DNA from: Alphaproteobacteria bacterium
GTDB taxonomy: Bacteria; Pseudomonadota; Alphaproteobacteria; UBA7887
Assembly: GCA_965216755.1 (NCBI GenBank)
Contig: CBDCGL010000011.1
Span: 4,672,001-4,736,000, forward strand
Reading direction: 5' to 3'
DNA: 64,000 bases
Part shown: piece by piece, positions 36,256-62,068 of the stretch
Layout of the letters: each line of letters begins with the position of its first letter
Position numbering within the stretch: the stretch's first letter is position 1
The notes under the pieces: generated by a model
Database searches by the model: none
The model's input: only the letters and a program-made list of their open reading frames with translations
What the model was told of the DNA's origin: nothing
Translations under genes and position numbers: made by a program

Positions 36256-36483
36256 GTGCGCGGTGCAAACCACGATCAGACGGCACAGAATGTCGTTATT
36301 ATGTAGTATCATAATAGATCGCAAAACATGTAGCTGTTTGGTTCGAGCCACCTGCTATGGTGGCCTCTGGGTCATTTTGCCCTCGATACCGGATGCCCTG
36401 GTGATCTAACCAGCAATCGGGGCGGCCAATTCTTGATCAACCAGTTCGTCTGGCGCAGTTGCGGATGCGCAATCCGCAAAGAT

Positions 36484-39400: not shown

Positions 39401-39498
39401 GAGACAACGCGTCAAACCTGTCGAACATGTCGATGCGGGAACTCAACATTTATCGCGGCGGCAAGAGCGACGCGTGGCTACAGGACCAAACGGCATGA
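36484..39498 (+). CDS. Phage-derived fibre/spike-like protein (beta-helix plus C-terminal lectin-like fibre module)
   Basis: YYIDSVSGSDANDG...GAYGSGARP beta-helix start; FTFTRAS...GLLMEPQRTNLLLRSEEF...SSYIPTT...VTRAA virion-fibre pattern; no signal peptide; start 36484 or 36490. Confidence 0.7.
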   Translation: MVMTTNQESRHAAVRALTGTARSYNEDWHALFDQWGIATGHFNERMLAWLNAVLGTDHANINDAATAFAVGQGVDSWHDVRALDIFDYYIDSVSGSDANDGLTMATAKQTLAGFDALGVKDNNGIRVGFARGSSWREQLQVNGGSNQVWGAYGSGARPLINAFDVLANASFSKTGGRTYVYEISISHPVGSVGIDWINCLEDTIPLVHVADVATCDTTPGSYHVASITTSPTTLYVHASDSSDVTVNGKTYEHTRRDWCFRKIAVGSCGFHGLHCRGGFNGEGNLVLPATVASNLLLDFGGRHHMQIEDGVVRDSIFNDHYFGRQSGGTLVAFQDDASGKSARFENLTFRNDNSGRNMDDNIFCTAMFAHRGGGGDYARLDIINCDVERHTNGVSGDQIGAVNIIGCRFADNDLVPVNAQAPIVNVDDTAIHVPPHNEPSRAINLRTGIAAQGSGQTMTVTDATICVADGGGDGNMSAITIGDNSSDGLTLNLTRVKASVDDAWVIKSRLAGGDVVTVNASNCTFGGTPLKNMSLAETAGEGPANWNGTNNHWLAPAADFELNQTVYADLAAFQAAGHETTGDSVGSVANVCAVGVDDPLLRQDFTAETLAMAKILGPDFTFTRASAGYRFNSHGVYVPESNDVPLLATHRDNGSSWVNDGLLMEPQRTNLLLRSEEFDNAAWSKNNVSVAANDAVAPDGTVSADRLTSDSTTSGTSQVVTITADADFVISYFVKRVDHDWVRLNAFNGANFINAWFDLGSGAKGSTSVGGTGSVIDYDIEEAGDYYRVWLAGSIGSGATSVTHQWFLADADASATESSGVSVHVWGGQIEEGATLSSYIPTTSAQVTRAAPNLETTDVSWYERDVGFTVLAKGIIPRFSDTAPTDLVFELHDGSFNNRVILYHDTSNWVVLVRSGAVNSVIQPIGSVVKGATYDIAVRYTPTDVQAAVNGTLDTPDTSVVMPSGITTLDIMRDNASNLSNMSMRELNIYRGGKSDAWLQDQTA

Positions 39499-43828: not shown

Positions 43829-44629
43829 TCAATTTGATTGTGCGTGCGCCCATTCCCGCAAGGCGCGTTTGTCGGCGATTTGAACTTCGCTGCCCCGGCT
43901 AACCACACCCACCGCGCGTAATTTTGACAGTGCACGCGACAGTGTTTCCGGCTGCATGCCCAATCTGCCGGCGATCAACGTCTTGTCAAGCGGCAGATGC
44001 ACGGTGATCGCGCCTTCGCCGGCTGGGCTGAGCCGCAGTAGAAAGCTGGCCAAGCGAACACTCGCGGAACTCGCCGATATTTGCTCGATCTGGTGAACGA
44101 GGTAGCGTAGCCGCCGCGACAGGGCCGCAAGTATGCTGAAACAGACATCCGGATTCTCGCGCAATACGCGCAAAAACCTGAGTGCCGGGATCACTAGTAG
44201 GCGGGCGTCGGTCACGATCGTTGCGCTGACCGGATATGTGCCGCTGTCGAAAATCGCTGCTTCAGCGAAGGATTCGCCTGGCGCAATGACATTGACAACG
44301 CTCTCGTGACCGCCCGGCGTGCTTCGATACAGTTTCACCCAACCTTCCAAGATGACAAAAAAGCGATCCGCCGCTTCGGATTGGACGAATAGGCTCGTTC
44401 CCGGCGTGTAGGCGGCCGTGTGTGCATCGACCAAGAGCTCACTGATCACCGATTCGTCCACGCCGTGGAACAAGACGATATGCTTGACCCTGTCAAATTC
44501 CTTTGCGTCCAGACCTTTAGGTCCAATGTTTTCGACCACGACTTTGTCCAGTTCTGCGGGCACTTTGGTACCGAAACATATTACACGCCACGGCCAAGCC
44601 GGAAAATATTCGGCCTGACCATCACGCAT
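43829..44629 (-). CDS. Crp/Fnr family regulator, DNR/NnrR-like (true start probably near GTG 44539)
   Basis: GWVKLYR, GESFAEAA, YPVSA, HTH LGMQPETLSR; no FNR-type Cys cluster. Confidence 0.88.
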   Translation of the reverse strand: MRDGQAEYFPAWPWRVICFGTKVPAELDKVVVENIGPKGLDAKEFDRVKHIVLFHGVDESVISELLVDAHTAAYTPGTSLFVQSEAADRFFVILEGWVKLYRSTPGGHESVVNVIAPGESFAEAAIFDSGTYPVSATIVTDARLLVIPALRFLRVLRENPDVCFSILAALSRRLRYLVHQIEQISASSASVRLASFLLRLSPAGEGAITVHLPLDKTLIAGRLGMQPETLSRALSKLRAVGVVSRGSEVQIADKRALREWAHAQSN

Positions 44630-45419: not shown

Positions 45420-45596
45420 ATGGCCGAAGGGTCTAAACCGGAAAATGCTGATGCTGGCGATGATGGGCAAATTCCGGTCATGCAGCGGGTCCTCGACAAT
45501 CCGTTCTTGTTGCTTTTTATGGGCGTCGCGACTCCAGCGGTGCTGTACCTGATGTGGGGCATCATGGAAGTCGCCAACATTCCGATCGCGAAGTAA
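45420..45596 (+). CDS. 58-aa single-TM protein, probable small subunit of the heme-copper enzyme (not in ORF track)
   Basis: Manual translation MAEGSKPENADAGDDGQIPVMQRVLDNPFLLLFMGVATPAVLYLMWGIMEVANIPIAK; GGGGGA RBS. Confidence 0.75.
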   Translation: MAEGSKPENADAGDDGQIPVMQRVLDNPFLLLFMGVATPAVLYLMWGIMEVANIPIAK

Positions 45597-45635: not shown

Positions 45636-46175
45636 ATGGCTGTTCATCCTCCTGAAGATAAGCTCTGGTGGAAAGAGCCTCTTCACGGCGTCGAGAGAAC
45701 GTGGATCACGGTCGCGTTTCTGTGGGGCGTCGTGATGTTTGGCACGATGATCTATTGGCACATTAGCGGCGAGCAGAATCTCTCGAGCGAGGCGTATCGA
45801 ATCGACCCGCTTGTGTTCGCCGAAAAAGCCGAAGCCATGGCGGATGCGTACACTGTCCGCGAAGAGGGCGATACCGGCGTGCCGGTCGTGCACCCGCCAC
45901 CAGGCGACGACATCTATTTGATCGCGCGGCTGTGGGAGTGGTGGCCAGTGCTAGAGCTTGAAAAAGACCAAAGCTATCGGTTGCATTTGTCGTCGATGGA
46001 CTGGCAGCACGGGTTCTCACTGCAGCCGACGAACGTGAATATACAGGTACATCCCAACTACGACCTGGTCATGACCATTACGCCGAGCGAATCAGGCGAA
46101 TTTGGGATCGTCTGCAACGAGTTCTGTGGAATCGGGCATCACCAGATGGCCGGTAAGATCTATGTGGTTGAGTGA
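45636..46175 (+). CDS. Heme-copper oxidoreductase subunit II with CuA site
   Basis: Single TM; DWQHGF and CNEFCGIGHHQM CuA ligands. Confidence 0.92.
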   Translation: MAVHPPEDKLWWKEPLHGVERTWITVAFLWGVVMFGTMIYWHISGEQNLSSEAYRIDPLVFAEKAEAMADAYTVREEGDTGVPVVHPPPGDDIYLIARLWEWWPVLELEKDQSYRLHLSSMDWQHGFSLQPTNVNIQVHPNYDLVMTITPSESGEFGIVCNEFCGIGHHQMAGKIYVVE

Positions 46176-46225
46176 CGACGTTCTCGAATGACGACGACAC
46201 ACTAGGGTGACTGGGGGAGGTGGCG

Positions 46226-47923
46226 ATGGCCAACACCGCGCAATTTCGGACCTGCCCGGAGACGGGTCTGAAAGTTCATTTGAGTGCAGAGTCGCTGATT
46301 AAGGCCAATGCGGTTGTTGCCGTCATTTTTCTTGCTCTCGGCGGCCTGTTTGGGATTTTGGTTGCGCTCACAAGGTGGCCGGCCGTGCATCTATTGCCGG
46401 CTGATCTGTTCTACCTGGCGTTGACCGCACATGGCGCCGATGTCCTGCTGTTTTGGATCATCTTTTTCGAAATCGCCTTGCTGTATTTCGCCTCTGCCAT
46501 TCTGCTCAATTGCCGGTTAGCGACACCTTCGATTGCATGGCTGGCGTTTGTTCTGATGGTGGTGGGCGCGGCCCTGGCCAATATCGCCGTTTTGCAGGGC
46601 GATTCGAGCGTCATGTTCACGTCTTATGTACCGATGCAAGCCGCGCCCCATTTCTATTTGGGGCTCATTTTATTCGCAGTCGGCGCGTTGCTCGGTGTCT
46701 TCGTGTTTTTCGGAACCTTGGTCATAGCCCGCGCGGAACGCACTTACGAAGGTTCGGTGCCCCTGGTCACGTTTGGAGCATTGACCGCGGCAATCATTGC
46801 GGTGTTCACGATCGTTTCCGGTGCAATCATTTTGATTCCAACTTTCCTTTGGTCGATCGGGTTGATTTCAGACATCGACACTGTGATGTACAAGGTTGTG
46901 TGGTGGGGCATGGGGCACTCCTCGCAACAAATCAACGTGGCCGCCCATGTCGCCGTATGGTACGCGATCGCGGCGCTGGTCCTGGGCGCCAAACCGCTGT
47001 CGGAGAAGGTCAGTCGGTTTGCCTTCTTGATGTACATTCTGTTCTTGCAATTGGCATCGGCCCATCATCTGCTGGCAGAGCCGGGTTTGAGCGCCGAATA
47101 CAAGGTGTTTAACACCAGCTACGCGATCTATTTGGCGGTGCTCGGCAGCATGATTCATGGCTTGAGCGTGCCGGGCGCGATCGAGGCGGCCCAGCGCCGA
47201 CGCGGGTTCACCAACGGGATATTCGAATGGTTGCGCCGTGCGCCTTGGGGCAACCCGGCATTCGCCGGCTTAGCGATTTCAGTCGTGCTCTTTGGTTTTC
47301 TGGGCGGTATTTCCGGCGTCGTGATGGGCACCGAGCAGATCAATCTGTTGATGCACAACACCCTGTACGTGCCGGGTCATTTCCACGCGACGGTCGTCGC
47401 CGGGACGACATTGGCGTTTATGGCTGTGACGTATCTTCTGATCCCATTGATTTTTAGACGCGACGTCATGTTCCCGGGACTGGCGAAGTGGCAGCCCTAT
47501 TTGTTCGGTATTGGGGTCGGCGGGATCTCACTGTTCATGATGGGCGCCGGTACTTTGGGCGTGCCGCGGCGACATTGGGACATCACCTATACGGATGCGG
47601 CGATTAGTTTTGATCACCCGCCGGCGGCGTTTTTGATGATGGGGCTCAATGGCTTGTTCGCCCTATTGGCGACGATCGGCGGCATCGCGTTTATCGTTGT
47701 GGTTGTCTCGTCCGTCTTTTTTGGTCAGCGTCGGGGCGAGGATGAAATCAAGAGCCGGCCGGCGGTACCGCCGGCGGCAACGGAAGCGGTGGCGGGATAT
47801 GGCGATGCCGGCACACTAAAAGTGCCGGGGACAGTGACACTGGTGGCCGTGTTCTTCGTTGCCTTCGTTCTCTACTATTACGTGAACTGGAAGTACTTGT
47901 CCGAAGTGTGGCCATTGAGTTAG
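46226..47923 (+). CDS. Heme-copper oxidoreductase subunit I, eNOR-type nitric oxide reductase
   Basis: All six His ligands (LTAHG, GHSSQQ, SAHHL, PGHFH); Gln at the cross-linking Tyr position; beside the nir cluster. Confidence 0.82.
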   Translation: MANTAQFRTCPETGLKVHLSAESLIKANAVVAVIFLALGGLFGILVALTRWPAVHLLPADLFYLALTAHGADVLLFWIIFFEIALLYFASAILLNCRLATPSIAWLAFVLMVVGAALANIAVLQGDSSVMFTSYVPMQAAPHFYLGLILFAVGALLGVFVFFGTLVIARAERTYEGSVPLVTFGALTAAIIAVFTIVSGAIILIPTFLWSIGLISDIDTVMYKVVWWGMGHSSQQINVAAHVAVWYAIAALVLGAKPLSEKVSRFAFLMYILFLQLASAHHLLAEPGLSAEYKVFNTSYAIYLAVLGSMIHGLSVPGAIEAAQRRRGFTNGIFEWLRRAPWGNPAFAGLAISVVLFGFLGGISGVVMGTEQINLLMHNTLYVPGHFHATVVAGTTLAFMAVTYLLIPLIFRRDVMFPGLAKWQPYLFGIGVGGISLFMMGAGTLGVPRRHWDITYTDAAISFDHPPAAFLMMGLNGLFALLATIGGIAFIVVVVSSVFFGQRRGEDEIKSRPAVPPAATEAVAGYGDAGTLKVPGTVTLVAVFFVAFVLYYYVNWKYLSEVWPLS

Positions 47924-47951: not shown

Positions 47952-48002
47952 ACTTCGCCAGCGGGTGGCCTCAAGAGCGCAAACAAGATCCGGGTGTTGA
48001 CG

Positions 48003-48869
48003 ATGCGCATTCACATCGCGCGGTTATACGGGGTCCTGAAGCTGCGCATTGGCTTTGCGATCATGCTGTGCACTTTGGCGGGAATCGCGGCAGCATCGGG
48101 GCAGGCACCAAGCGCGTGGGCCGTGACGTTGTTGGCCCTTGCCGTGTTGATGTCTTCGGCGAGTGCCGGTGCATTCAATCAGCTCGTCGAGGCCGATTTG
48201 GATGCGCGCATGGCACGGACCCAACATCGCCCATTTGTTACTGGCGATTTCAAAGCGGGACCAGTATGGCACGGTGCTGTCGCGGTTATGCTGGTAGTTG
48301 CCGTCGCGACAGCGGCCTTGGCGACAAACGGTTGGGCCGCCGGGTATGTTTTTCTGGGCGCGTTCGTGTATGGCGTTGTGTACACGGTCTGGCTGAAACG
48401 GCGGAGCGTTTGGAATATCGTCGTTGGCGGGCTCGCGGGCAGTTTTGCCGTGCTGGCTGGCGCTGCGGCTGTCGATCCAAATTTGGGTGTGGCACCGGTG
48501 GTGCTGGCCATTGTGCTGTTTCTGTGGACGCCGCCGCATTTTTGGTCGTTGGCATCGTATCTCCGCGACGATTACGCGGCCGCCGGCGTACCCATGTTGC
48601 CCGTTGTTGCCGGGATGCCGGTAACGGCGTGGGTGACTCTGGGTCACACCTTGGCTTTGGTGGGATTGTCAATCATTCCGTTTTGGTACGGCATGGGATG
48701 GCTCTACCTTGCCGGCGCCATATCAGGCGGCTGCTTGTTTCTGTATACCAGTATTCGTTTTGTTCGAGATCCAGTGGCGTCCGCTGCAATGGTCAATTTC
48801 CGCGCCTCATTGGTTCAACTAAGTCTGCTGCTGGTTGGCACTTTGGCAGATCGCTTGGTCCTCGGATGA
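48003..48869 (+). CDS. ctaB: Protoheme IX farnesyltransferase (heme O synthase)
   Basis: DLDARMARTQHRP, YTVWLKRR, LWTPPHFWSL, DYAAAGVPMLP. Confidence 0.93.
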   Translation: MRIHIARLYGVLKLRIGFAIMLCTLAGIAAASGQAPSAWAVTLLALAVLMSSASAGAFNQLVEADLDARMARTQHRPFVTGDFKAGPVWHGAVAVMLVVAVATAALATNGWAAGYVFLGAFVYGVVYTVWLKRRSVWNIVVGGLAGSFAVLAGAAAVDPNLGVAPVVLAIVLFLWTPPHFWSLASYLRDDYAAAGVPMLPVVAGMPVTAWVTLGHTLALVGLSIIPFWYGMGWLYLAGAISGGCLFLYTSIRFVRDPVASAAMVNFRASLVQLSLLLVGTLADRLVLG

Positions 48870-48870
48870 T

Positions 48871-49722
48871 GTGGTCGGCACGGCAACTGGGGCCCAGGTG
48901 CTTAGGCTAGTATTCGCGATCACCTTACTCGGTGTGACCGGTAGCGGCGCCTGGGCGAAGGCGGGGACGCCGGTCGCCAGCCAAGATGTGGTGCTCGATC
49001 CCGAAGCTGCGCTGGCGTCGAGTCAGGCCGCTATCGGGCGGCTGGTATCCGACTTCGAGTTTCTGGATGCGGACAGCAAACCGATCAGTCTGGGGGATTT
49101 TCGCGGCCGGCCATTGGTTATCAATCTTGTCTACACGGGGTGTGCGCACACTTGCCCATTGATTGTGCAAAGCCTCTATCACGCGATTGATGTGGGCCAA
49201 GAAGCACTGGGCGCGGATGGTTTCGAAACCGTGACGATCGGTTTTGATACCAACGCCGATACGCCATCGCGAATGAAGGAATTCGCGCGTAGTCAAGGGG
49301 TTGATCTTCCTGGGTGGCATTTCCTGAGCGGTGACCGTCAAACGATCGATTCTCTGACAGCGCAACTCGGGTTTGCATTCATGCCGCTGAGCGGCGGATT
49401 TGATCATCTTGCGCAGACAACCATTCTGGATGAGAACGGTCGCGTCTATCGACATGTCTATGGTTCAGATTTCGGCGCACCGCACGTTGTCGAACCCCTT
49501 AAGGAACTGATCTTTGGACGGCGGGCCGATTTGGTATCGTTCACGGGACTGGTCAATCAAATCAAGCTTTTCTGCACGATATACAGTCCCGGCAGCGAAC
49601 GTTATCGTTTCGACTATTCGGTTTTTGTCGGTGCGTTGATTGGCTTTTTGTGTCTCGCCGGGATCGCCATTGTGTTGGTCCGCAGTTGGCTGCGAGACTG
49701 GCGCGCGAGGTCTCAAGCGTGA
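48871..49722 (+). CDS. SCO1/SenC copper chaperone with C-terminal TM extension (start uncertain)
   Basis: YTGCAHTCP (CxxxC), FDH. Confidence 0.88.
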   Translation: MVGTATGAQVLRLVFAITLLGVTGSGAWAKAGTPVASQDVVLDPEAALASSQAAIGRLVSDFEFLDADSKPISLGDFRGRPLVINLVYTGCAHTCPLIVQSLYHAIDVGQEALGADGFETVTIGFDTNADTPSRMKEFARSQGVDLPGWHFLSGDRQTIDSLTAQLGFAFMPLSGGFDHLAQTTILDENGRVYRHVYGSDFGAPHVVEPLKELIFGRRADLVSFTGLVNQIKLFCTIYSPGSERYRFDYSVFVGALIGFLCLAGIAIVLVRSWLRDWRARSQA

Positions 49723-49780: not shown

Positions 49781-51340
49781 ATGAATAGTTTAAAACGTGG
49801 TCTCCGGATGGGCTTCGAGCCGGTCGAAAGCGCATTCGATCGCATTTTTTCGCCCGCGTGGAATCCATTCTATCATCTGGGCGCGCTCGGATTCTTTTAC
49901 TACTGGATTGTCGCGATCAGCGGCATCTATGTATATCTTTTTTTCGATACGGGGACAGAGGCGGCGTACGCATCGGTGGAGTTCATCACCAATGCGCAGC
50001 GATATCATGCGGGCATTATGCGCAGCCTGCACCGCTACGCGTCTGATGGCCTGGTGCTTATGATGGCGATCCACATGGTGCGCGAGTTCTCGCTGGATCG
50101 TCTGCGCGGCGCGCGCTGGTTCACCTGGGTGACCGGGCTGCCGGTTCTATGGCTGGTCGTCGCGTCGGGCATTACCGGTTATTGGCTGGTGTGGGACAAA
50201 CTGGCCCAGTATGTGGCGATCGCGACAACGGAATGGCTGGACTGGTTGCCATTTTTTGGCGAGCCCATTGCGCGAAATTTTCTGTCGGTTGCGAGTTTGG
50301 ATAGCCGCTTTTTTACTTTGTTGATCTTCATTCACATCGCTGTGCCGTTGATCCTGTTGTTCGTTCTTTGGATCCATTTGCAGCGGGTCAGTCGGCCGGC
50401 GATTCATCCGCCGCGCGGGCTTGCCCTTGGCACTCTCGCCATGCTGGTGGTCCTGTCACTGTTCAAGCCGGCGACAAGCCACGGACCCGCAAATCTGGCT
50501 GAAGTGCCGGTGGTTGTTCAGCTGGACTGGTTCTATCTGGGATTCTACCCACTGCAAGAAATCTGGGGTTCCGGCGCCTTGTGGGGATTGGTCGGGATTC
50601 TGAGCCTGACCGTGGCCGCGCTGCCGTGGATGCCGTCGATGCGCCGGCCCGCGCCGGCTAAGGTGGATTTGGAGAACTGCAATGGTTGTCGGCGGTGTGT
50701 CGACGATTGCCCCTATTTTGCCGTGGCCATGCAACCGCGAAGCGACGGCAAGCCGTTTGACGCGGAAGCCGTTGTTAACCCGGATTTGTGCGTTTCCTGT
50801 GGCATTTGCGCCGGCGCGTGCCCGACCTCGACGCCGTTTCGACGCGCACAAGACCTTTCGCCAGGCATCGAATTGCCGGATGACCGCTTGGCCGATCTGC
50901 GTGCGCGCATTGAAACTGCGGTGGGTGCGCCAAATGCGCGGCGCGTGATCACGTTTGCATGCGATCACGGCGCGAATCCAAAGTCGGTTCAACATCCTAG
51001 CGCGGCGGTCGTGCGCGTGCCGTGCGTCGGAATGGTCCCGCCATCATTTATCGACTTTGTACTCAGTCGCGGCATCGGTGGCGGCGCCGTCTTGGCCGGA
51101 TGCCACGAAGGTGAGTGCTACCATCGTTTCGGTGCGCAATGGACTGCCGATCGGTTGGACCGAAAACGCGATCCCTATCTTCGGGCGCGCGTGGACGACC
51201 GCCGGGTCATGCGGCTTGGCGCCGGTCCGCGCGATCACCGTCACGTCGAAACCCTGATTGGCACGTTTGTATCGGAACTCGAGGCGCTGGATGCCGTCGC
51301 CGAGAAAGATGCCGAAATGACGGCGCGCGAGGCGGTCTGA
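49781..51340 (+). CDS. Cytochrome b/b6 - 2x[4Fe-4S] ferredoxin - MvhD/FlpD [2Fe-2S] fusion protein
   Basis: RSLHRY...AIHMVR and IFIHI...WIHLQ heme His pairs; CNGCRRCVDDCP and CVSCGICAGACP; ITFAC, RVPCVG, AGCHEGECYH. Confidence 0.85.
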   Translation: MNSLKRGLRMGFEPVESAFDRIFSPAWNPFYHLGALGFFYYWIVAISGIYVYLFFDTGTEAAYASVEFITNAQRYHAGIMRSLHRYASDGLVLMMAIHMVREFSLDRLRGARWFTWVTGLPVLWLVVASGITGYWLVWDKLAQYVAIATTEWLDWLPFFGEPIARNFLSVASLDSRFFTLLIFIHIAVPLILLFVLWIHLQRVSRPAIHPPRGLALGTLAMLVVLSLFKPATSHGPANLAEVPVVVQLDWFYLGFYPLQEIWGSGALWGLVGILSLTVAALPWMPSMRRPAPAKVDLENCNGCRRCVDDCPYFAVAMQPRSDGKPFDAEAVVNPDLCVSCGICAGACPTSTPFRRAQDLSPGIELPDDRLADLRARIETAVGAPNARRVITFACDHGANPKSVQHPSAAVVRVPCVGMVPPSFIDFVLSRGIGGGAVLAGCHEGECYHRFGAQWTADRLDRKRDPYLRARVDDRRVMRLGAGPRDHRHVETLIGTFVSELEALDAVAEKDAEMTAREAV

Positions 51341-51345
51341 TCACC

Positions 51346-51870
51346 ATGTCCTATGCCGTTACCATACGCGATTGGGGGCCACGTCTTCTGGGCCAGGCTG
51401 TTATCTACGCCGGAATTGCTGCGCTTTTCGGGTATTTTTCGACCAGTCCGGCATATGTTCGCCTGGGTCCGGATGAGGCGGTCATCAAGCTCAGCTTTGC
51501 CCACGGAGGCGCCCGTAAAGGCGGGTGCCGGCGATTGAGCGCCGAGGAAATTGCCGCTTTGCCGCCGAACATGCGGCGCCCGCTTGATTGCCCGAGGGAA
51601 CGGGTGCCCGTTTATGTGGAATTGTTGCTGGACGACGAGCCGATTTATCAGGAGTCATTGCCGCCAACCGGATTGGCTGGTGATGGACCATCAAGCGCGT
51701 ATGTCCGGTTTCGGGTCGCGGCCGGCGCCTACACATTAATTGCGCGGTTGCGCGACAGTGATCGTGACACCGGGTTCGATTTCACGTCGGTGAAGCAGGT
51801 TGTGATGGCCCCGGGGCAGAATTTCGTTATCGATTTTCGTGCCGAAACCGGCGGGTTCATTTTCAGGTGA
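51346..51870 (+). CDS. Membrane-anchored hypothetical protein with a Cys pair
   Basis: N-terminal TM; GGCRRLS...PPNMRRPLDCPRER; start at ATG 51346. Confidence 0.75.
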   Translation: MSYAVTIRDWGPRLLGQAVIYAGIAALFGYFSTSPAYVRLGPDEAVIKLSFAHGGARKGGCRRLSAEEIAALPPNMRRPLDCPRERVPVYVELLLDDEPIYQESLPPTGLAGDGPSSAYVRFRVAAGAYTLIARLRDSDRDTGFDFTSVKQVVMAPGQNFVIDFRAETGGFIFR

Positions 51871-51886
51871 CGCGACGAGGTACTTG

Positions 51887-52291
51887 ATGGTTTTGTTAAA
51901 TTGGCGTCGCGAGTACGAAATCGGAATTCCGGCGGTTGACCACGAACACCGCGCATTAATTGATCTGATAAATGAATTGCATGCCAATTTAAAAAAGGGT
52001 GAGAGCGCAGCGAAAATCAGCGATTTTTTGGGCGATGTCTTTGCGGCCATTTCGGCCCATTTTGCCCTGGAGGAACGGGTGATGCGCGAACATGCCTATG
52101 ATGGCTTTGACGCCCATAAGGCCGAGCATGAGCAACTTCTAGACGATATTCGCGACGTGATGGATCGCCATGAGAACGGCGATTATGCCGATTCGGATCA
52201 AGAGTTGGCTGAGCACTTACGTTCTTGGTTTCTGGGCCATTTCTCGACGCTCGACGCGCGCCTGCATAAAGCGCTCGGCGATCATTTTTAG
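51887..52291 (+). CDS. Bacteriohemerythrin
   Basis: W...Y.IG...VDHEH, HFALEE, HKAEH, WFLGH...D di-iron ligands. Confidence 0.92.
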   Translation: MVLLNWRREYEIGIPAVDHEHRALIDLINELHANLKKGESAAKISDFLGDVFAAISAHFALEERVMREHAYDGFDAHKAEHEQLLDDIRDVMDRHENGDYADSDQELAEHLRSWFLGHFSTLDARLHKALGDHF

Positions 52292-54459
52292 GCGGCGGGT
52301 TGCTTGGTCGCGGCGGCCGCGGCCGCCGCCCGGGCCTCGCGCCTTTTGCGCCGCGCGATCAGCGGCGGGCACAAGTGATTATCGTAGTAGTGCATTTGGC
52401 ATTCGAGGCAGTAGATGCATTCGCTGGGGTTGATTGCACCATTGGGATGAATCGATTGCACCGTGCACCGCGTTGCGCAAATGCCGCATTCCGCGCCGCA
52501 CTGTTTGCGCCGCTTTAGCCATTCGAACATGCGCAGGCGCGAGGGGATCGCGAGCGCCGCGCCGAGCGGGCACAAATAGCGGCAGAAAAAGCGTTCGATA
52601 AACAGCCCGGCGCACAGCAACAACGCGACATAAAGCAAGAACGGCCAGTGGCGCATGAATTTCAACGAGATGGCGGTCTTAAAGGGTTCAACTTCCGACG
52701 CCGTCACCGCCAATTCCATCGTGTTGAGCGATAACGCCAGCAGAATGAGAAAGAGGAGGTATTTCAACGGCCACAATCTTTCGTGTATGGAAAATCGTGG
52801 ACTGTACTGCGGCACGTTGAGGCGCCGCGCGACCATATTGGCAAGCTCCTGCAAGGCGCCGAACGGACATAGCCAGCCGCAATACACGCCGCGCCCCCAG
52901 AATAGAATCGTGACCGCCACAAAGCTCCACAGTATGAAAATCAAGGGTTCGAGCAAAAAGAATTCCCAGCGAAAATCCTCCATCAAGGCATGTATAAAGG
53001 TTAGTACGTTAATTATTGATAATTGCGCTCCGGCATACCAGCCAAGCCACAAGAGCGTGAACAGGAGAAACGATGTTCGAATTCCGGCGTGTAGTGCGGG
53101 ATGTCGGGAAACGGCATCCTGAAGGAAGAGAACGCCGGTCAGCGCCAACAAGGCGAGAATCAAAATCGAGATTCGGACCGGCTGATTTCGCCAGGCCTGA
53201 ATCCACAGCGGCGCATCGGCGGCGAAAAAGGCTGCCAAACTGAGCGCCGTCGTGTCGGCCTTTGGTGCCAAGATCAGCGTGTTGGGCAACTGGTACCGTA
53301 AGCCAAAGACAGCGCGCGCTGTTTCGCCATCGCTTTTCTTTCGCGATACGGTTAGGTCCAGGCGCCACGCATCCTCCGCGCGAAAGCCCGCGTCCGGCGG
53401 AATCGAAAACAACGCGATTTCGCGGAGCGGCGGCAGATTCGCGGCAACCAGGGACTCGAAGCCGCGGTGCCATTCCTTCTTAAGCACGATAGCGCGTTCG
53501 CCTTGCACCAGTTGAACGCGGTCAAATGTGCCGGACTTGACATAACCTGTGCCTTTGAACGAATAGAGTCCCCATCCGGCTATGACAACAAGATGACCCC
53601 CGATCGGCAATGCGTTGCGCGCTTTGGTGAAATCAGACGGTTCAAACAAGTTCTGGCCAATCGCCGCCGGCGTCGCCAGTCCGGCGTAAAGATCAATGAA
53701 CGTGTCGTCGGGATCAAAGTCCACAACGGCAGGCGCCCCGACCGCGGCCAGAGCTGCTTCAACGTCGCCACGTAAGAGATGGAGGTGACCGATCGCTCCG
53801 GAGGCGATGAGTGTCGGCCAGTCGGCCTCGCGAAAACCGTCCAGATCAATACGCGCCGCGCCGCCATGCGCCGTATCGATGACGCCGCGCGCCCGGGCAA
53901 CCAGCCGGGCCGCGCGAATGATCGCATCGTTCATGACCATGCTGCTTATGGTCGCGCCACTGATGCTGTCGATAGCGCTGGTCCCGGAACCGGCGGCCCC
54001 CAGCTTGGTAGGTTGGCGAATGTCGACGTGTTTGTACTGGGCCACAAAGTCGTGAAGGCTTTGTTCGGCGACGCCGATGATCAGTATCGGTTCTTGATGA
54101 TGCCGAATGAACGCGCCGGTGATCAGGCCTTGCGTGTCGAGGCCAACCAAAATGTCGAAAGGCTTGCCACCATAGCCCGCGGTCTCCGCCACCGCCAAGC
54201 TGGAAAACACGTATCCGAGCTGTTGGTCGCCGCGAGAGACCGTGTGCGCCGGTGGATCTCCGCTTGCCGGGCCAACCCGGTCGGCTCCGGGAAAGACTCG
54301 GTTGACAAGATCAATCGTTAGGTCACCCGACACAAGTTCGGCGGCGATGGCGAGTGGTGCAAATGGGATCAGGGTGCCCAGCACGACAAACACACACAAA
54401 CAGTGTCTGACGGTCCAAGCACGCCCTTGTCCGTTTGTCATATGGGACACGCTAGTCAC
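52288..54459 (-). CDS. nirI: NirI/NosR family FMN- and Fe-S-containing membrane protein
   Basis: DSISGATISS flavinylation motif, YCGWLCPFG, FCRYLCPLG, C-terminal ferredoxin Cys; divergent from nirS. Confidence 0.88.
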   Translation of the reverse strand: MTSVSHMTNGQGRAWTVRHCLCVFVVLGTLIPFAPLAIAAELVSGDLTIDLVNRVFPGADRVGPASGDPPAHTVSRGDQQLGYVFSSLAVAETAGYGGKPFDILVGLDTQGLITGAFIRHHQEPILIIGVAEQSLHDFVAQYKHVDIRQPTKLGAAGSGTSAIDSISGATISSMVMNDAIIRAARLVARARGVIDTAHGGAARIDLDGFREADWPTLIASGAIGHLHLLRGDVEAALAAVGAPAVVDFDPDDTFIDLYAGLATPAAIGQNLFEPSDFTKARNALPIGGHLVVIAGWGLYSFKGTGYVKSGTFDRVQLVQGERAIVLKKEWHRGFESLVAANLPPLREIALFSIPPDAGFRAEDAWRLDLTVSRKKSDGETARAVFGLRYQLPNTLILAPKADTTALSLAAFFAADAPLWIQAWRNQPVRISILILALLALTGVLFLQDAVSRHPALHAGIRTSFLLFTLLWLGWYAGAQLSIINVLTFIHALMEDFRWEFFLLEPLIFILWSFVAVTILFWGRGVYCGWLCPFGALQELANMVARRLNVPQYSPRFSIHERLWPLKYLLFLILLALSLNTMELAVTASEVEPFKTAISLKFMRHWPFLLYVALLLCAGLFIERFFCRYLCPLGAALAIPSRLRMFEWLKRRKQCGAECGICATRCTVQSIHPNGAINPSECIYCLECQMHYYDNHLCPPLIARRKRREARAAAAAAATKQPAA

Positions 54460-54476: not shown

Positions 54477-54490
54477 TTGACCGAGATCAA
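54477..54490. promoter_or_regulatory. FNR/DNR/NnrR box in the nirI-nirS divergent region
   Basis: TTGAC-CGAG-ATCAA. Confidence 0.75.
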
Positions 54491-54641: not shown

Positions 54642-56483
<1,842 letters not shown>

Positions 56484-56527: not shown

Positions 56528-57328
56528 ATGTTGGTGCGCATAGGTGAGCAACCACAGGTCCATCTAGTCGGTGCGGGCCCCGGTGACCCGGAGCTTCTGA
56601 CGCTCCGGGCGCATCGGTTGCTGCGGGAGGCCGACGTCGTTGTTTATGATCGTCTGGTGTCCACGGAGGTATTGGATCTGATACCAACGGGCACGGCGCG
56701 GATCTACGTTGGCAAAGCGTCCGGAAACCACACATTGCCCCAAGCCGAGATCAACACGCTGCTCGCCCGACTGGCGCGGGCCGGGCGGCGTGTGGTTCGA
56801 CTCAAAGGGGGGGATCCGTTCCTTTTCGGCCGCGGTGGTGAAGAGGCCGAAGATCTGGCACGGCTGGGCATTAGATGTGAGATCGTCCCAGGTGTGACCG
56901 CGGCAACCGGGTGTGCGGCGGCCGCCGGTATTCCACTCACTCATCGCGGCCTGGCGACCGGCGTACGCTTTGTGACCGGTCACTGTCGCGGTGAAGGCGC
57001 CCTGGAATTTGATTGGGATGGATTGGTCGATACGCAGACAACCTTGGTCGTCTATATGGGTTTGGCCACACTGCCCGAGCTGGTCCAGAAGCTGGTGGAG
57101 GCTGGGCGCGCCGCCGACACGCCGGTGGCCGCAATCTCTCACGGAACTTGGGAGAGCCAACGAGTCTGCATCGCCAGCTTGGCGACAATCGCCGATGCGG
57201 TTGTTGACGCCAACCTGTCGACTCCGGTTGTCTTCGTCATTGGCGAAGTCGTGCAAATGGCGCGCATTTTGGCACCCCATGACGCGATCCGCGACCGCGA
57301 TTCCGATGTGTCAAGGCATGGCACCTAA
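56528..57328 (+). CDS. nirE: Uroporphyrinogen-III C-methyltransferase
   Basis: LVGAGPGDPELLT, RLKGGDP..FGRGGEE, VPGVTAA. Confidence 0.92.
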   Translation: MLVRIGEQPQVHLVGAGPGDPELLTLRAHRLLREADVVVYDRLVSTEVLDLIPTGTARIYVGKASGNHTLPQAEINTLLARLARAGRRVVRLKGGDPFLFGRGGEEAEDLARLGIRCEIVPGVTAATGCAAAAGIPLTHRGLATGVRFVTGHCRGEGALEFDWDGLVDTQTTLVVYMGLATLPELVQKLVEAGRAADTPVAAISHGTWESQRVCIASLATIADAVVDANLSTPVVFVIGEVVQMARILAPHDAIRDRDSDVSRHGT

Positions 57329-60862: not shown

Positions 60863-62068
60863 ATGTTTCGTTTGTCCCAATTCGTGCGCGAGGTTTTTGA
60901 ACCGACTCCAAGCCGTCGCACGAACGGTCCGGCCGGACCGGTTGTCATTTGGAATTTGATTCGGCGATGTAATTTGCTTTGCAAACATTGCTATTCCATT
61001 TCGGCGGACAAGGATTTCCCCGGTGAGCTGACGACCGACGAAGTCTATGCGGTCATGGATGACCTGGCGGCATTTGGTGTGCCGGTCCTCATTCTATCGG
61101 GCGGGGAACCGCTTTTGCGCCCCGACATCTTCACCATATCGCGACGCGCCAAGGAGATAGGCTTTTATGTCGGTCTGTCGACCAACGGCACACTGATCGA
61201 CGCGACGAACATCGGCGAGATCGCTGCCGTCGACTACAACTATGTCGGCATCAGTATCGATGGCCTTCGTGCCACGCACGACAAGTTTCGTCGCCGCGAC
61301 GGGGCGTTTGATGCATCCATGCGCGGTGTGCGCTTGTGCCGCGATGCAGGTATCAAGGTCGGATTGCGATTCACCATGACGCAAGATAATGCCCATGAAC
61401 TAAGCGCATTGCTGGATCTCATGCGCACAGAGCGCGTGGACAAATTCTATCTTTCGCACTTGAATTACGCCGGGCGCGGCAACCACAACAGAAAGGATGA
61501 CGCCGTCTTTCAGGCGACGCGTGACGCCATGGACTTGCTGATCGAGACAAGTATGGAGGATGTGCGCCAAGGATATCGACGCGAGCTCGTCACCGGCAAC
61601 AACGACGCGGACGGCGTCTACTTGTTGCGGTGGGTCGAGTCGCATTTTCCGGAGCGAGCGGCGCGCATTCGGGACAAGCTGGTGGCATGGGGCGGCAATG
61701 CGTCGGGCGTGAACGTGGCCAACATCGACAATATCGGTGAGGTCCATCCCGATACGATGTGGTGGCACTATAGCCTCGGAAATGTGCGCAAGCGGCCGTT
61801 TTCCGAGATCTGGCCGGACACGACCGACCCGCTGATGGCGGGCCTGAAGGTTCGCCCGCGATCGGTGCACGGTCGTTGCGGTAAGTGCGCGTACCTTAGA
61901 ATATGTGGCGGAAATACGCGCGTGCGGGCGGAGCAGATTGCCGGAGATCCATGGGCAGAAGACCCGGGCTGCTATTTGACCAACGCTGAGATCGGCGTCG
62001 CCGAACATGGTGAACGCCTGACGACGACACCCTTTGCGGCGTCGCACGGTCGGCGCCGTATCGCTTGA
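60863..62068 (+). CDS. nirJ: Heme d1 biosynthesis radical SAM protein
   Basis: GPVVIWNLIRRCNLLCKHCY, SGGEPL, SHLNYAGRG, SPASM cysteines. Confidence 0.95.
   Translation: MFRLSQFVREVFEPTPSRRTNGPAGPVVIWNLIRRCNLLCKHCYSISADKDFPGELTTDEVYAVMDDLAAFGVPVLILSGGEPLLRPDIFTISRRAKEIGFYVGLSTNGTLIDATNIGEIAAVDYNYVGISIDGLRATHDKFRRRDGAFDASMRGVRLCRDAGIKVGLRFTMTQDNAHELSALLDLMRTERVDKFYLSHLNYAGRGNHNRKDDAVFQATRDAMDLLIETSMEDVRQGYRRELVTGNNDADGVYLLRWVESHFPERAARIRDKLVAWGGNASGVNVANIDNIGEVHPDTMWWHYSLGNVRKRPFSEIWPDTTDPLMAGLKVRPRSVHGRCGKCAYLRICGGNTRVRAEQIAGDPWAEDPGCYLTNAEIGVAEHGERLTTTPFAASHGRRRIA

Follow-up and report, generated by a model that had tools for sequence, protein, structure and literature searches.

Introduction

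Why would the gene cassette of an NO reductase encode a membrane cytochrome b that is joined, within one polypeptide, to ferredoxin and MvhD-like domains? The locus studied here lies in a 64,000-nucleotide stretch of DNA (C11:4672001-4736000, hereafter the window), and a sequence-only reading of it took the protein for an uncharacterised, Rieske-less wire between cytoplasmic redox partners and the quinone pool or periplasm, either feeding an eNOR-type enzyme or supplying redox power for its maturation. We find that the anatomy of this wire, that is a di-haem cytochrome without a Rieske partner and with cytoplasmic iron-sulfur (FeS) domains, stands up to analysis; what had been overlooked is the adjoining small gene, orf175, which forms part of the same unit. 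The term 'uncharacterised' fits to the extent that literature searches outside supplements returned no biochemical study of the fusion; they returned only a citation of an Accumulibacter 'unusual cytochrome b/b6' and one paragraph of a 2026 preprint, in the available text of which this type of protein is already mentioned. Overall, the fusion is a real and widespread membrane protein that, together with orf175, looks like a dedicated add-on of an N2O-producing NO reductase.

A bc-type cytochrome b continued by iron-sulfur domains

The fusion is encoded by an ORF whose ends match its coordinates exactly (Table 1), while the genome's own gene call starts at Met10 and yields 510 residues (P0001). 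Its membrane part matches the Pfam family Cytochrome_B (PF00033) over residues 22-201 (E 2.1e-20, 73.8 bits, cut-off 27.2), with cytochrome b6 as the top PDB sequence match (E 3.2e-19). AlphaFold2 models the entire protein at pLDDT 93.0 and pTM 0.90, and about 285-300 residues of it align in Foldseek to bc1 cytochrome b (TM-score on the target 0.55-0.58, E 3e-8). A Fer4-type dicluster match follows at residues 293-350 (Fer4_7, E 4.7e-10). The C-terminal domain had been read as FlpD/MvhD, and it does match that family: PF02662 is found at residues 401-503 (E 6.5e-11, 42.7 bits, cut-off 22.3) and the top PDB matches are the solved MvhD chains 9sw2_D, 7bkb_F and 5odc_D (E 4.7e-6 to 2.5e-5). This FlpD domain is the only one in the whole genome and, going by its sequence, probably carries a [2Fe-2S] cluster.

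Conservation across 120 fusion relatives supports the cofactor content that had been proposed, namely a cytochrome b with two haems held by four histidines and a pair of [4Fe-4S] motifs. The haem ligands H84, H98, H185 and H199 are kept in all 120 relatives and are also invariant in 94 diverse sequences; they pair as H84/H185 and H98/H199, with 13 residues between H84 and H98 and again between H185 and H199. Equally invariant are the eight cysteines of the ferredoxin domain (300/303/306/310 and 337/340/343/347) and the FlpD cysteines 394, 415, 441 and 446, so that all 4 His and 12 Cys are present in 120/120. The reported replacement of the PEWY motif by LDWF is also correct: L248-D249-W250-F251 occupies this place and is followed by Y252. 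D249, W250 and Y252 occur in every relative, L248 in 109, and position 251 is Phe in 101 and Tyr in 19. As a test for PEWY the family fails, with Pro at the first position in 1/120 and Asp for Glu in 120/120. At the PWDQ position, W138-D139 is invariant.

In the AlphaFold2 model, the membrane part consists of six helices and leads into the ferredoxin domain, the first cysteine of which is 15 residues past helix F. The Arg/Lys-rich loops (the N-terminus, B-C, D-E and after F) lie on one side. Judged by the six predicted helices, the positive-inside rule and the ferredoxin start so close behind helix F, the FeS domains are cytoplasmic. Several relatives show an in-frame TGA, for which we considered selenocysteine and rejected it: in L126, the sole relative checked, the gene is an ordinary ORF, and the TGA would presumably fall ahead of the real start codon.

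The surroundings of the fusion were searched for redox partners. As had been stated, the window contains no Rieske gene; the genome has five Rieske matches, all outside the window, one of which (petA-like) adjoins a canonical cytochrome b at 3.74 Mb. The stated lack of hydrogenase and HdrA genes extends to the entire 99.8%-complete genome: it encodes no NiFe hydrogenase, and its best match to the HdrA2 model is the C-terminus of the fusion itself, which leaves the MvhD-like domain without either of these partners. We also considered the fusion as an O2-independent haem A synthase replacing CtaA. This candidate was discarded, because the genome has a CtaA elsewhere, above cut-off (138 bits), and the fold is that of cytochrome b, not of CtaA.

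orf175 is a fourth domain of the same unit

The start codon of orf175 lies 3 nt past the stop of the fusion. Its model (pLDDT 94.4) shows a helix at residues 8-34 and then a beta-sandwich, and no Pfam or NCBIfam family matches it. Among six long (about 690-aa) fusion relatives that were retrieved, five (P0122, P0127, P0141, P0148 and P0169) have an orf175-like C-terminus, and at locus L134 the fusion and orf175 matches fall inside a single 696-aa ORF. On these sequence grounds, orf175 is a split-off fourth domain of the fusion unit, which is newly recognised here.

orf175 has two invariant cysteines (C62, C83), one near-invariant histidine (H54) and no obvious cofactor site. Foldseek against the PDB gave no match at E <= 1e-3, and the structures ranked highest by VIA-align (Z 9.2 and 8.6) come from unrelated membrane proteins, as luminal or extracellular beta-sandwiches that are uninformative on function; matches in the protein atlas are to 'hypothetical protein' clusters only. 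Kinship with the Ig-like domain of CcoG was tried and rejected, since hhalign against the C-terminal domain of the genome's CcoG returned a probability of 0.3%, so that the likeness is architectural only.

The cassette encodes an eNOR-type enzyme

Upstream of the fusion, the haem-copper subunit I carries H233, Q236, Q237, H282, H283, H387 and H389 in 56/56 sequences. Its motif G-H233-S-S-Q-Q237 lacks an active-site tyrosine, with Gln at His+4 in all 56; we take this to be the position of the cross-linked active-site tyrosine. The CuA ligands of subunit II (H125, C160, E162, C164, H168 and M171) are likewise invariant in 56/56. In the available text of the eNOR papers, eNOR is described as missing the active-site tyrosine and as having a CuA-type subunit II. 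The gene order of the cassette matches that of the eNOR operon of Ferrigenium straubiae, as far as the preprint text at hand describes it (bioRxiv 10.64898/2026.01.22.701106).

Table 1. Features of the fusion protein and of the genes around it (positions in the window).
Feature	Position	Strand	Evidence
Crp/Fnr-family regulator, upstream of the cassette	43829..44629	-	cNMP_binding + HTH_Crp_2
Unlisted 58-aa one-helix ORF upstream of subunit II	45420..45596	+	tblastn
eNOR-type subunit II with CuA site	45636..46175	+	partial CoxB/NosZ CuA-domain matches
eNOR-type haem-copper subunit I	46220..47923	+	PF00115, E 5.4e-64
Haem o synthase (CtaB/CyoE)	47994..48869	+	TIGR01473, 247.4 bits, cut-off 210.3
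SCO1/SenC copper chaperone / thiol oxidoreductase, extra C-terminal membrane helix	48835..49722	+	PF02630, E 4.3e-14
Cytochrome b / 2x[4Fe-4S] / FlpD(MvhD) fusion, 519 aa	49781..51340	+	ORF, Pfam, NCBIfam, AlphaFold2
Fusion residues 1-290, six-helix bc-type cytochrome b (helices A-F)	49781..50650	+	PF00033, Foldseek, AlphaFold2 helices, conservation
Fusion residues 293-350, ferredoxin domain, two CxxCxxCxxxCP motifs (2x[4Fe-4S])	50657..50830	+	Fer4 families
Fusion residues about 385-503, FlpD/MvhD-like domain, probable [2Fe-2S]	50933..51289	+	PF02662 above cut-off; MvhD chain alignment
orf175, single-pass membrane protein with periplasmic beta-sandwich	51343..51870	+	no family; structure model, fusion in relatives
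Bacteriohemerythrin	51839..52291	+	NF033749, 105.9 bits, cut-off 84
NosR/NirI-type membrane FMN/FeS protein, divergent from nirS	52288..54459	-	NF046105, 776 bits, below cut-off 1000; Fer4_5, FMN_bind
Probable cd1 nitrite reductase NirS, haem d1 genes next	54645..56483	+	own sequence and flanking haem d1 genes
Uroporphyrinogen methyltransferase	56534-57328		
NirJ	60863-62068		TIGR04051

Several smaller members recur with the enzyme. In 99/99 loci with enough upstream sequence, tblastn places a match to the 58-aa ORF under 120 nt ahead of the subunit II gene; the ORF probably encodes a small subunit of the eNOR-type enzyme. A TM-like C-terminal segment is found in the cassette SCO1 of 107/109 loci. 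Bacteriohemerythrin is a frequent and not a constant member (29/33 and 66/78 loci), in contrast to orf175, which always adjoins the fusion. As an obligate cytoplasmic partner, hemerythrin was rejected: 11 of 12 stretches in one set have no match, the gene is truly missing in L108 and L111, and in the twelfth stretch (L133) it is on the opposite strand. Downstream, the NirS candidate matches no NCBIfam family at E 1e-10. A scan for FNR/Dnr boxes gave 3 matches where 2.2 are expected, which is not significant; one FNR-like box is located between nosR and nirS (54477-54490).

The fusion and the eNOR-type enzyme are inherited together

A link to eNOR-type enzymes outside this locus holds in every sample examined. 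Among 401 genomes of the class, 26 have the fusion and the same 26 have eNOR-type subunit I. The phylum sample of 301 genomes contains 47 with both, 3 with the fusion only, 1 with HCO only and 250 with neither, and 141 genomes of Thermodesulfobacteriota divide into 8 with both, 1 + 1 with a single gene and 131 with neither. Either gene is present in only 6-16% of the genomes in the three samples. Copy numbers match as well, at 2:2 in G681 and G773, and the fusion module has tandem paralogues.

At the level of loci, the fusion is downstream of HCO1 in 75/75 cases with enough sequence, and HCO1 is upstream of the fusion in 30/33, the remaining 3 being without that flank. The association survives where this linkage is lost. 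Eight retrieved genomes have the fusion and orf175 apart from the eNOR operon, with HCO1 on another contig or 12-927 kb off; in all eight stretches the pair stays adjacent, and six of them have a cd1-type nirS no more than about 0.7 kb away from it. The pair is adjacent in L128 too, where the operons are divergent. A Nitrospinota MAG has a stand-alone fusion and two eNOR-like genes elsewhere. In two distant MAGs, which together with the phylum sample are the basis for distant gene contexts, the fusion is found in unrelated neighbourhoods (mreBC; TPR proteins). The fusion and eNOR-type subunit I therefore coincide across genomes even when the genes are unlinked, an observation that is new here.

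A modelled docking site beside the CuA loop

Complex prediction of eNOR subunits I and II with orf175 gave a score of 0.70 (runs 0.72, 0.70 and 0.63) compared to 0.00 for the best control. The same mark is reached by 58/80 solved complexes and by 2/110 mismatched pairs, a calibration from which our model departs in its custom alignments and its three chains. At least 86% of contacts are common to the runs, with a partner pLDDT of at least 81. Because orf175 has no solved homologue, a pass by model memory is unlikely.

The modelled interface takes in residues 164-167 of subunit II, between the CuA ligands C164 and H168, and on the side of orf175 includes the segments 53-56, 74-79 and 109-116 as well as residue 85. 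It holds 6 of the 18 conserved positions of orf175 (hypergeometric P 0.02 over 175 residues, 0.05 over residues 40-175). C62, C83 and H54 probably lie on the CuA-facing side, as judged from their positions in the sequence. In this model, which is new here, orf175 would sit on the eNOR-type enzyme right next to the CuA loop; since it has no obvious cofactor site, no modelled cofactor bridges haem bL to CuA.

A docked outward conduit and its alternatives

We tentatively favour, at a little under an even chance, a conduit made of the fusion and orf175 that is dedicated to eNOR, docked on it and directed outward, and that mainly feeds its turnover. More specifically, this two-gene module would dock on the eNOR-type NO reductase encoded just upstream. 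The cytochrome b part would span the membrane with two b haems and be continued on the cytoplasmic side by two [4Fe-4S] clusters and one MvhD-type cluster in a chain; orf175 would re-cross the membrane, set its beta-sandwich against eNOR on the periplasmic side, next to the CuA loop, and tether the conduit to the electron-entry side. Electrons could then move from a cytoplasmic reductant through the FeS chain to haem bH, haem bL and the periplasmic face, their main use being the supply of eNOR independently of the bc1/cytochrome c route. Four elements of this scheme are inferred: that electrons run outward, which cytoplasmic donor supplies them, how they finally reach CuA or haem a, and that they serve turnover and not maturation. 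It counts against the scheme that the genome encodes neither HdrA nor a hydrogenase as partner of the MvhD-like domain, and that haem bL and CuA are not linked by any modelled cofactor.

The outward direction is favoured by relatives with 48-54% identical cytochrome b domains, which have NAD(P)H-oxidising modules in place of the Fd-MvhD part: flavodoxin + FAD + NAD in P0162, and [2Fe-2S] + FAD + NAD in P0172, which belongs to a cluster of 6 members. In modules of this type, electrons taken from NAD(P)H are handed on to an acceptor. With regard to the enzyme itself, the available text of the eNOR paper reports purification and NO reduction with TMPD/ascorbate, and a word search of it finds zero occurrences of 'ferredoxin' and 'hemerythrin'; because purified eNOR reduces NO and this text leaves the module unmentioned, the module would be dispensable in vitro and may fail to co-purify, which speaks against our reading. 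As to expression of relatives, the part of the Ferrigenium preprint at hand reports two cytochrome b proteins in a proteome alongside eNOR I and eNOR II (bioRxiv 10.64898/2026.01.22.701106).

The same docked outward conduit could instead serve the maturation or maintenance of the eNOR metal centres, with reducing power used to form Cu(I), to keep the cysteines of SCO1 and of the CuA site reduced, or to reduce the iron destined for the active site, and with orf175 holding the machine at the CuA site, much as CcoG serves cbb3 oxidase and NosR serves N2O reductase. We regard this as unlikely, if the most serious alternative. It is favoured by the place of the fusion in the 'assembly' half of the operon, where the structural genes are followed by haem o synthase, SCO1, the fusion and orf175, and where SCO1, with its unusual C-terminal membrane helix, ends 59 nt before the fusion. 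The modelled seat of orf175 at the CuA loop, with its conserved Cys pair and His probably on that face, points the same way, as do the relatives with NAD(P)H modules, which share the logic of transmembrane metal reductases (the FRE/NOX family), and the comparable architecture of CcoG, which combines membrane helices with two [4Fe-4S] clusters in the cytoplasm and an Ig-like domain in the periplasm. Activity of purified eNOR in a text that makes no mention of the module, in the part available, also fits. One protein, P0243, joins SCO1 and cytochrome b, but this singleton from one contig may be a gene-calling artefact. Maturation sits badly with the eight genomes that keep the pair away from the eNOR operon, six times near nirS, the gene of an enzyme without copper. 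Complete cassettes always include the module, yet ctaB, the true maturation gene, is absent from 17/77; other CuA enzymes manage without a conduit of this kind, and two PCuAC genes and a CcoG are already present in this genome. The tandem paralogues, the 2:2 pairing with duplicated eNOR and the absence of a sequence relationship between orf175 and the C-terminal domain of CcoG count against it as well.

Electrons might also run inward. The invariant D-W-x-Y and W138-D139 fit a quinol-oxidising site and thereby suggest inward rather than outward flow, and both haems are strictly kept. The cytochrome b would then retain a Qo-type site and work either like NarI/NarH, from quinol through the haems and cytoplasmic FeS clusters to a cytoplasmic acceptor, or by bifurcation, one electron going to the docked eNOR, its high-potential sink, and the other via bL/bH to the FeS chain and a low-potential reductant. 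Modelled docking beside the high-potential CuA would suit this, and parts of the literature agree with it: the preprint proposes NO reduction coupled to NAD+ reduction in Ferrigenium (bioRxiv 10.64898/2026.01.22.701106), and the Accumulibacter 'unusual cytochrome b/b6', only a putative family member, is cited as an anaerobic quinol re-oxidiser (PMC9041414). What makes inward flow improbable in our view is that no Rieske-type or other one-electron acceptor is present at the site, that orf175 has no cofactor ligands, that the NAD(P)H modules of relatives normally run from NAD(P)H outwards, and that no cytoplasmic acceptor enzyme is encoded nearby. Furthermore, moving electrons inward while releasing protons outside has to be driven against the membrane potential, which would require a strongly downhill acceptor or true bifurcation. 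More improbable still is the extended form in which eNOR is the end of a supercomplex of at least five subunits (the 58-aa protein, subunits II and I, orf175 and the cytochrome b-FeS protein), whose Rieske-less cytochrome b bifurcates quinol electrons with the docked CuA as acceptor. Least probable of all is a module that shares the eNOR regulon and neither binds nor serves eNOR, being instead a membrane protein for denitrification or redox balancing in general, or a sensor of NO or redox state. The unlinked pairs close to nirS and the unrelated neighbourhoods in both distant MAGs would be explained by such a role, and the orf175-eNOR complex is only a model; near one-to-one co-occurrence with eNOR-type subunit I in three samples where so few genomes have either gene, matching copy numbers, and a complex model that passes with controls at 0.00 argue against it.

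Significance

According to the available text of PMC11214002, eNOR-type enzymes are as widespread as classical NO reductases and form N2O in wastewater, iron-oxidising and saline communities; the N2O that eNOR makes is a greenhouse gas. In our samples, almost every enzyme of this type is accompanied by a conserved, five-cofactor transmembrane wire with a modelled tether at the electron-entry site. If tether and co-occurrence hold, eNOR as studied in vitro is incomplete, and if the wire feeds turnover from a cytoplasmic reductant, as we tentatively propose, NO could be removed without recourse to the bc1/cytochrome c chain. The five-subunit supercomplex, if true, would mean that eNOR in vivo is not a two-subunit, cytochrome-c-fed enzyme. 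Were the wire to bifurcate, the second electron would pass via bL/bH into the cytoplasmic FeS chain, so that the very exergonic reduction of NO to N2O would drive formation of reduced ferredoxin or NAD(P)H as a low-potential reductant. Such quinone-based bifurcation would lie outside the bc1/b6f family, and denitrification would gain a new energy-coupling site.

Comparison with known systems

A comparable description is that of the Ferrigenium straubiae eNOR operon, with genes for eNOR II, eNOR I, haem o synthase, sco1, a 'scaffold protein of unknown function' and cytochrome b-FeS proteins; the likeness is by description, not by protein alignment. The preprint calls these genes 'rather unusual' and suggests a cytochrome b-FeS/eNOR supercomplex (bioRxiv 10.64898/2026.01.22.701106); its annotation paragraph, in the text available, has no MvhD domain, scaffold-like fusion or docking site.

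In fold, helices A-F resemble cytochrome b6/subunit IV of b6f and bc1 cytochrome b (PetB/PetD, QcrB), with the four His on helices B and D at bc1-type spacing and PWDQ- and PEWY-like positions partly kept. Unlike these proteins, which have eight helices, or four plus three when split, the fusion has six and ends after helix F; it has LDWFY for PEWY and no Rieske partner in the window, and it carries cytoplasmic FeS domains in the place of an open Qi side. The Cys that binds haem c(n) in b6 is His, Asn or Gln in the fusion family (position 32), and the genome's canonical bc1 cytochrome b is a separate protein encoded elsewhere. The best NCBIfam match of the membrane part is ExtP/ExtQ (NF040969/NF040970; ExtP 98.7 bits at residues 30-205, ExtQ at 219-289), far under the curated cut-offs of 290 and 150 bits; ExtP and ExtQ are split and without FeS domains.

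Residues 290-506 of the fusion match positions 569-774 of the 777-position HdrA2 model (E 1.5e-18), that is the C-terminal ferredoxin of HdrA plus MvhD, and the Cys pattern aligns with MvhD of Mvh-Hdr complexes (PDB 5odc, 7bkb, 9sw2). In contrast to those systems, the genome lacks the HdrA flavoprotein part, hydrogenase and HdrBC, and the module is joined to a membrane cytochrome.

In architecture, the pair recalls NosR/NirI and CcoG (FixG), each of which combines a domain in the periplasm with membrane helices and 2x[4Fe-4S] in the cytoplasm, and is encoded with the one terminal reductase to which it is tied: NosR/NirI serve N2O reductase and CcoG serves cbb3 oxidase. A NosR-type gene even adjoins the cassette. 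Unlike the fusion, NosR and CcoG are without haem b and belong to other families (Fer4_5, FMN_bind, FixG_C), none of which Pfam finds in the fusion or orf175.

Finally, di-haem b anchors with cytoplasmic FeS partners are known from NarI-NarH, HdrE-HdrD, DsrM-DsrK and QmoC. These anchors are of the NarI/HdrE type and feed a known cytoplasmic catalytic subunit, whereas the fusion is bc-type and such a subunit is absent; what the fusion has in common with them is the arrangement itself, in which a stack of two b haems joins an FeS chain in the cytoplasm to the periplasmic side.

Domain architecture and conservation of the fusion

The sequence-only reading had described the product of this gene (hereafter the fusion) as a cytochrome b joined to a ferredoxin with two [4Fe-4S] clusters and an MvhD-like domain, and this anatomy held on every testable point, namely Pfam domains, invariant histidines and cysteines, and the L-D-W-F/Y-Y motif. 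All three Pfam modules score over their curated cut-offs (see table). The FlpD/MvhD identity of the C-terminal domain is matched by Pfam and by solved MvhD chains, the closest solved structures by sequence (E 5e-6 to 2.5e-5), and NCBIfam matches residues 290-506 to the C-terminal part of HdrA2, a ferredoxin domain with fused MvhD (E 1.5e-18). For the N-terminus, the closest solved structure by sequence is cytochrome b6 (E 3.2e-19); the nearest NCBIfam families to the membrane part are ExtP/ExtQ-type b cytochromes, at scores far under their cut-offs.

Features of the eNOR region, with positions in the window (residue numbers for domains)
Feature	Position	Strand	Description
GTA/phage head spike fiber domain protein	36433-39498	+	1021 aa; E 4.5e-42
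Small ORF	45420-45596	+	58 aa, one hydrophobic helix, unlisted; 39 nt 5' of subunit II
eNOR subunit II (CuA protein)	45636-46175		
eNOR-type haem-copper subunit I (HCO1)	46220-47923		
SCO1/SenC	48835-49722	+	C-terminal membrane-helix-like segment and basic tail
Fusion	49781-51340	+	519 aa; the genome's gene call (P0001) begins at Met10, 510 aa
Cytochrome_B	fusion residues 22-201		Pfam E 2.1e-20
Two-cluster ferredoxin	fusion residues 293-350		Pfam
FlpD	fusion residues 401-503		Pfam E 6.5e-11
orf175	51343-51870	+	start codon 3 nt past fusion stop
NosR/NirI-type protein	52288-54459	-	776 bits, under NosR cut-off of 1000; divergent from nirS
FNR-like box	54477-54490		one consensus mismatch; between NosR/NirI-type gene and nirS

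Among 120 relatives at 57-66% identity, all four haem histidines, the eight ferredoxin cysteines and the four FlpD cysteines are invariant, as are D, W and the final Y of the L-D-W-F/Y-Y sequence at the PEWY position. In an alignment reaching down to 27% identity, the haem histidines and ten cysteines are still invariant, and C441, C446 and D249 persist in 90% or more. Proteins of this architecture are common: of 8000 candidates scored in a protein search, 4973 reached E <= 1e-3, the same three domain families being found in all 120 among the matches listed, and a search of 1.84 billion cluster representatives returned 3539 matches at this threshold (526 at E <= 1e-30). Representatives fall into two length classes (~500-530 and ~690-720 aa), and source databases list them either as 'cytochrome b N-terminal domain-containing protein' or as 'hydrogenase iron-sulfur subunit'.

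An AlphaFold2 model built with 94 relatives is confident overall (pLDDT 93.0, pTM 0.90). It has six membrane helices, A-F, and over about 290 residues it can be superposed on bc1-complex cytochrome b (TM-score 0.55-0.58, target-normalised). The iron-sulfur domains would be cytoplasmic, like the n-side of bc complexes, because the N-terminus, B-C loop, D-E loop and segment past helix F are rich in Arg/Lys and the first ferredoxin cysteine lies 15 residues past helix F.

As the sequence-only reading had noted, the window holds no Rieske gene (profile search) and no hydrogenase or HdrA gene; NiFe hydrogenase and HdrA were found nowhere in the genome (99.8% complete). The canonical Rieske/cytochrome b pair of the same genome lies at 3.74 Mb.

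orf175 as a fourth domain

The product of the next gene, orf175, matches no family in Pfam or NCBIfam. Five of the six long fusion relatives fetched extend past FlpD into an extra membrane helix and an orf175-like domain; the sixth has an unrelated tail and is probably frame-shifted. At a Nitrospinota locus, one 696-aa ORF holds both the fusion match and the orf175 match (E 4.5e-17). Judged from these sequences, orf175 is best regarded as part of the fusion's unit. Its model (pLDDT 94.4) consists of one helix and a beta-sandwich, for which structure searches found no informative relative; the invariant residues of orf175 are two Cys, two Arg and a Gly. The beta-sandwich must be periplasmic, because fused forms place one helix between it and the cytoplasmic domain.

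Tandem fusion paralogues followed by a single orf175 occur at two loci (L132 6663-9841, L133 6283-9456) from genomes that are small (~2 Mb) and belong to a single family. Both paralogues have the full cytochrome b/ferredoxin/FlpD complement and may form a heterodimeric cytochrome b core.

The eNOR cassette

Upstream of the fusion, the order is the 58-aa ORF, subunit II, subunit I, haem o synthase and SCO1. CuA ligands are invariant in subunit II (56/56), and subunit I carries the active-site motif G-H-S-S-Q-Q, with the tyrosine absent, in 56/56. We call the enzyme eNOR-type from this motif and the operon order; its grouping with the characterised Rhodothermus enzyme is putative. The 58-aa ORF keeps its position in all 99 loci with enough upstream sequence, and its product is probably a small subunit of the enzyme that has gone unannotated. 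The cassette SCO1 has the extra C-terminal helix-like segment and basic tail in 107 of 109 loci; classical SCO1 proteins are known with an N-terminal anchor alone. A singleton protein, P0243, has SCO1 fused to the cytochrome b. The head spike fiber domain protein points to the remnant of a gene-transfer agent or prophage, lying a few kb away from the denitrification island.

In G401, G694, G740 and other Thermodesulfobacteriota genomes, eNOR-like subunit I matches are interrupted by between one and three TAA stops in frame, frequently close to position 510 of the model. This suggests that, in this phylum, a small ORF of its own encodes the C-terminal ~50 residues.

Linkage of the fusion to eNOR

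The expected linkage of fusion and eNOR elsewhere was found both in fetched loci and in three whole-genome samples. Searching with the fusion brought in 33 loci. Of these, 30 have subunit I upstream and three lack that flank; orf175 follows in 30 as well, and the remaining three stop within the fusion. A search with subunit I added 78 loci, taken from more than 567, whose subunit I shares 70% identity or more with that of the window; the fusion lies downstream in 75 of them and orf175 in 70. The three loci missing the fusion stop short of its position, and the eight missing orf175 are all at contig ends. By the same query, ctaB is absent from 17 of 77 sufficiently long loci and hemerythrin truly absent from two.

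In the window's own class (401 genomes), the same 26 genomes have fusion and subunit I, on one contig and 2-4 kb apart in 25. In its phylum (301 genomes), 50 have the fusion, 48 subunit I and 47 both; completeness is 77%, 82% and 96% for the three genomes with the fusion alone, and 97%, over 360 contigs, for the single genome with HCO alone. Among 141 Thermodesulfobacteriota genomes, nine have a full-length fusion, nine subunit I and eight both; in two of the genomes both genes are present twice, adjacent pair by pair. These counts are descriptive and carry no statistical test, because related genomes are not independent.

In eight fetched genomes of one family, HCO1 is either on a different contig or separated by 12-927 kb, with the 927 kb found in G409, and a cd1-type nirS lies within ~0.7 kb of the fusion-orf175 pair in six of them; in a ninth (L128), the fusion and eNOR operons are divergent neighbours. 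The pair is intact throughout, with a 4-nt overlap in L126. These moved pairs (L122-L130) belong to family f225, and the nirS-adjacent ones have no hemerythrin gene. In two distant MAGs, the neighbourhood of the fusion is unrelated, and eNOR-like subunit I genes lie elsewhere in the genome. The fusion-eNOR link outlasts loss of synteny.

Predicted docking of orf175 on eNOR

A complex of both eNOR subunits and orf175 was predicted from alignments of 56 rows each. It scored 0.70 (runs 0.72, 0.70 and 0.63; best of three controls 0.00), a mark that 58 of 80 solved complexes attain, as against 2 of 110 mismatched pairs. Unlike the calibration set-up, the prediction used self-made alignments and three chains. 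Runs share at least 86% of contacts, with partner pLDDT of at least 81. In the model, orf175 residues 53-56, 74-79, 85, 109-116 and 166-170 confidently contact periplasmic loops of subunit I (54-62, 127-131, 139-140, 454-465) and subunit II residues 77-80, 123 and 164-167, the last between CuA ligands C164 and H168. Six of 18 conserved orf175 positions fall inside the 24-residue interface (hypergeometric P 0.02 over all 175 residues, 0.05 over residues 40-175 alone). The membrane helix lies outside the confident interface and would therefore be free to pack on cytochrome b. Memory of a known structure is an unlikely source of the score, because orf175 has no solved homologue. The model thus supports binding of orf175 to eNOR, short of demonstration.

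Direction and use of the electrons

In relatives with a cytochrome b domain 48-54% identical to that of the fusion, other cytoplasmic modules take the place of ferredoxin-MvhD: a flavodoxin-FAD-NAD diflavin reductase in P0162, and a [2Fe-2S]-FAD-NAD reductase in P0172 (six members in its cluster). Reductase modules of this kind draw electrons from NAD(P)H. The membrane potential opposes inward electron movement with proton release on the outside. Because of both points, we favour outward flow through the fusion, in which electrons would pass from the cytoplasm through the iron-sulfur clusters to haem bH, haem bL and the periplasmic face. A quinol-oxidising or bifurcating mode with inward flow is kept alive by the invariant D-W-x-Y motif, and we consider it improbable.

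Given outward flow, the electrons could plausibly supply eNOR turnover, a reading we hold tentatively, at somewhat short of an even chance. It is consistent with a module that is never missing where ctaB often is, with the tandem paralogues and the 2:2 pairing with duplicated enzymes, with the nirS adjacency of unlinked modules, and with detection of the module's proteins in a proteome, according to the accessible part of a preprint on the Ferrigenium straubiae eNOR operon (bioRxiv 10.64898/2026.01.22.701106). Against direct supply stands the step from haem bL to CuA, with no modelled cofactor between. A role in eNOR maturation or maintenance is somewhat less likely; it would fit the position of the module 3' of haem o synthase and SCO1, the extra C-terminal helix of the cassette SCO1, the modelled docking at the CuA loop, probably near the Cys pair of orf175, and a paper on purified, active eNOR whose accessible part mentions no such proteins.

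Relation to known systems

What is new here is the recognition of orf175 as the unit's fourth domain, its modelled docking on the CuA side of eNOR, and the near one-to-one co-inheritance of fusion and eNOR across two phyla, with or without synteny. The fusion is a real and conserved protein that is still uncharacterised; our literature search found no biochemical study of it. The P0162 and P0172 types may be what the portion available of PMC9041414 refers to, for Accumulibacter, as an 'unusual cytochrome b/b6'. The accessible part of the Ferrigenium straubiae preprint gives the same gene order for eNOR operons, describes a pair of cytochrome b-[Fe-S] genes in that operon as 'rather unusual' and proposes a supercomplex. 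The protein type has thus already been noticed, and the window contributes a further member, a variant among membrane cytochrome b/FeS electron-transfer modules.
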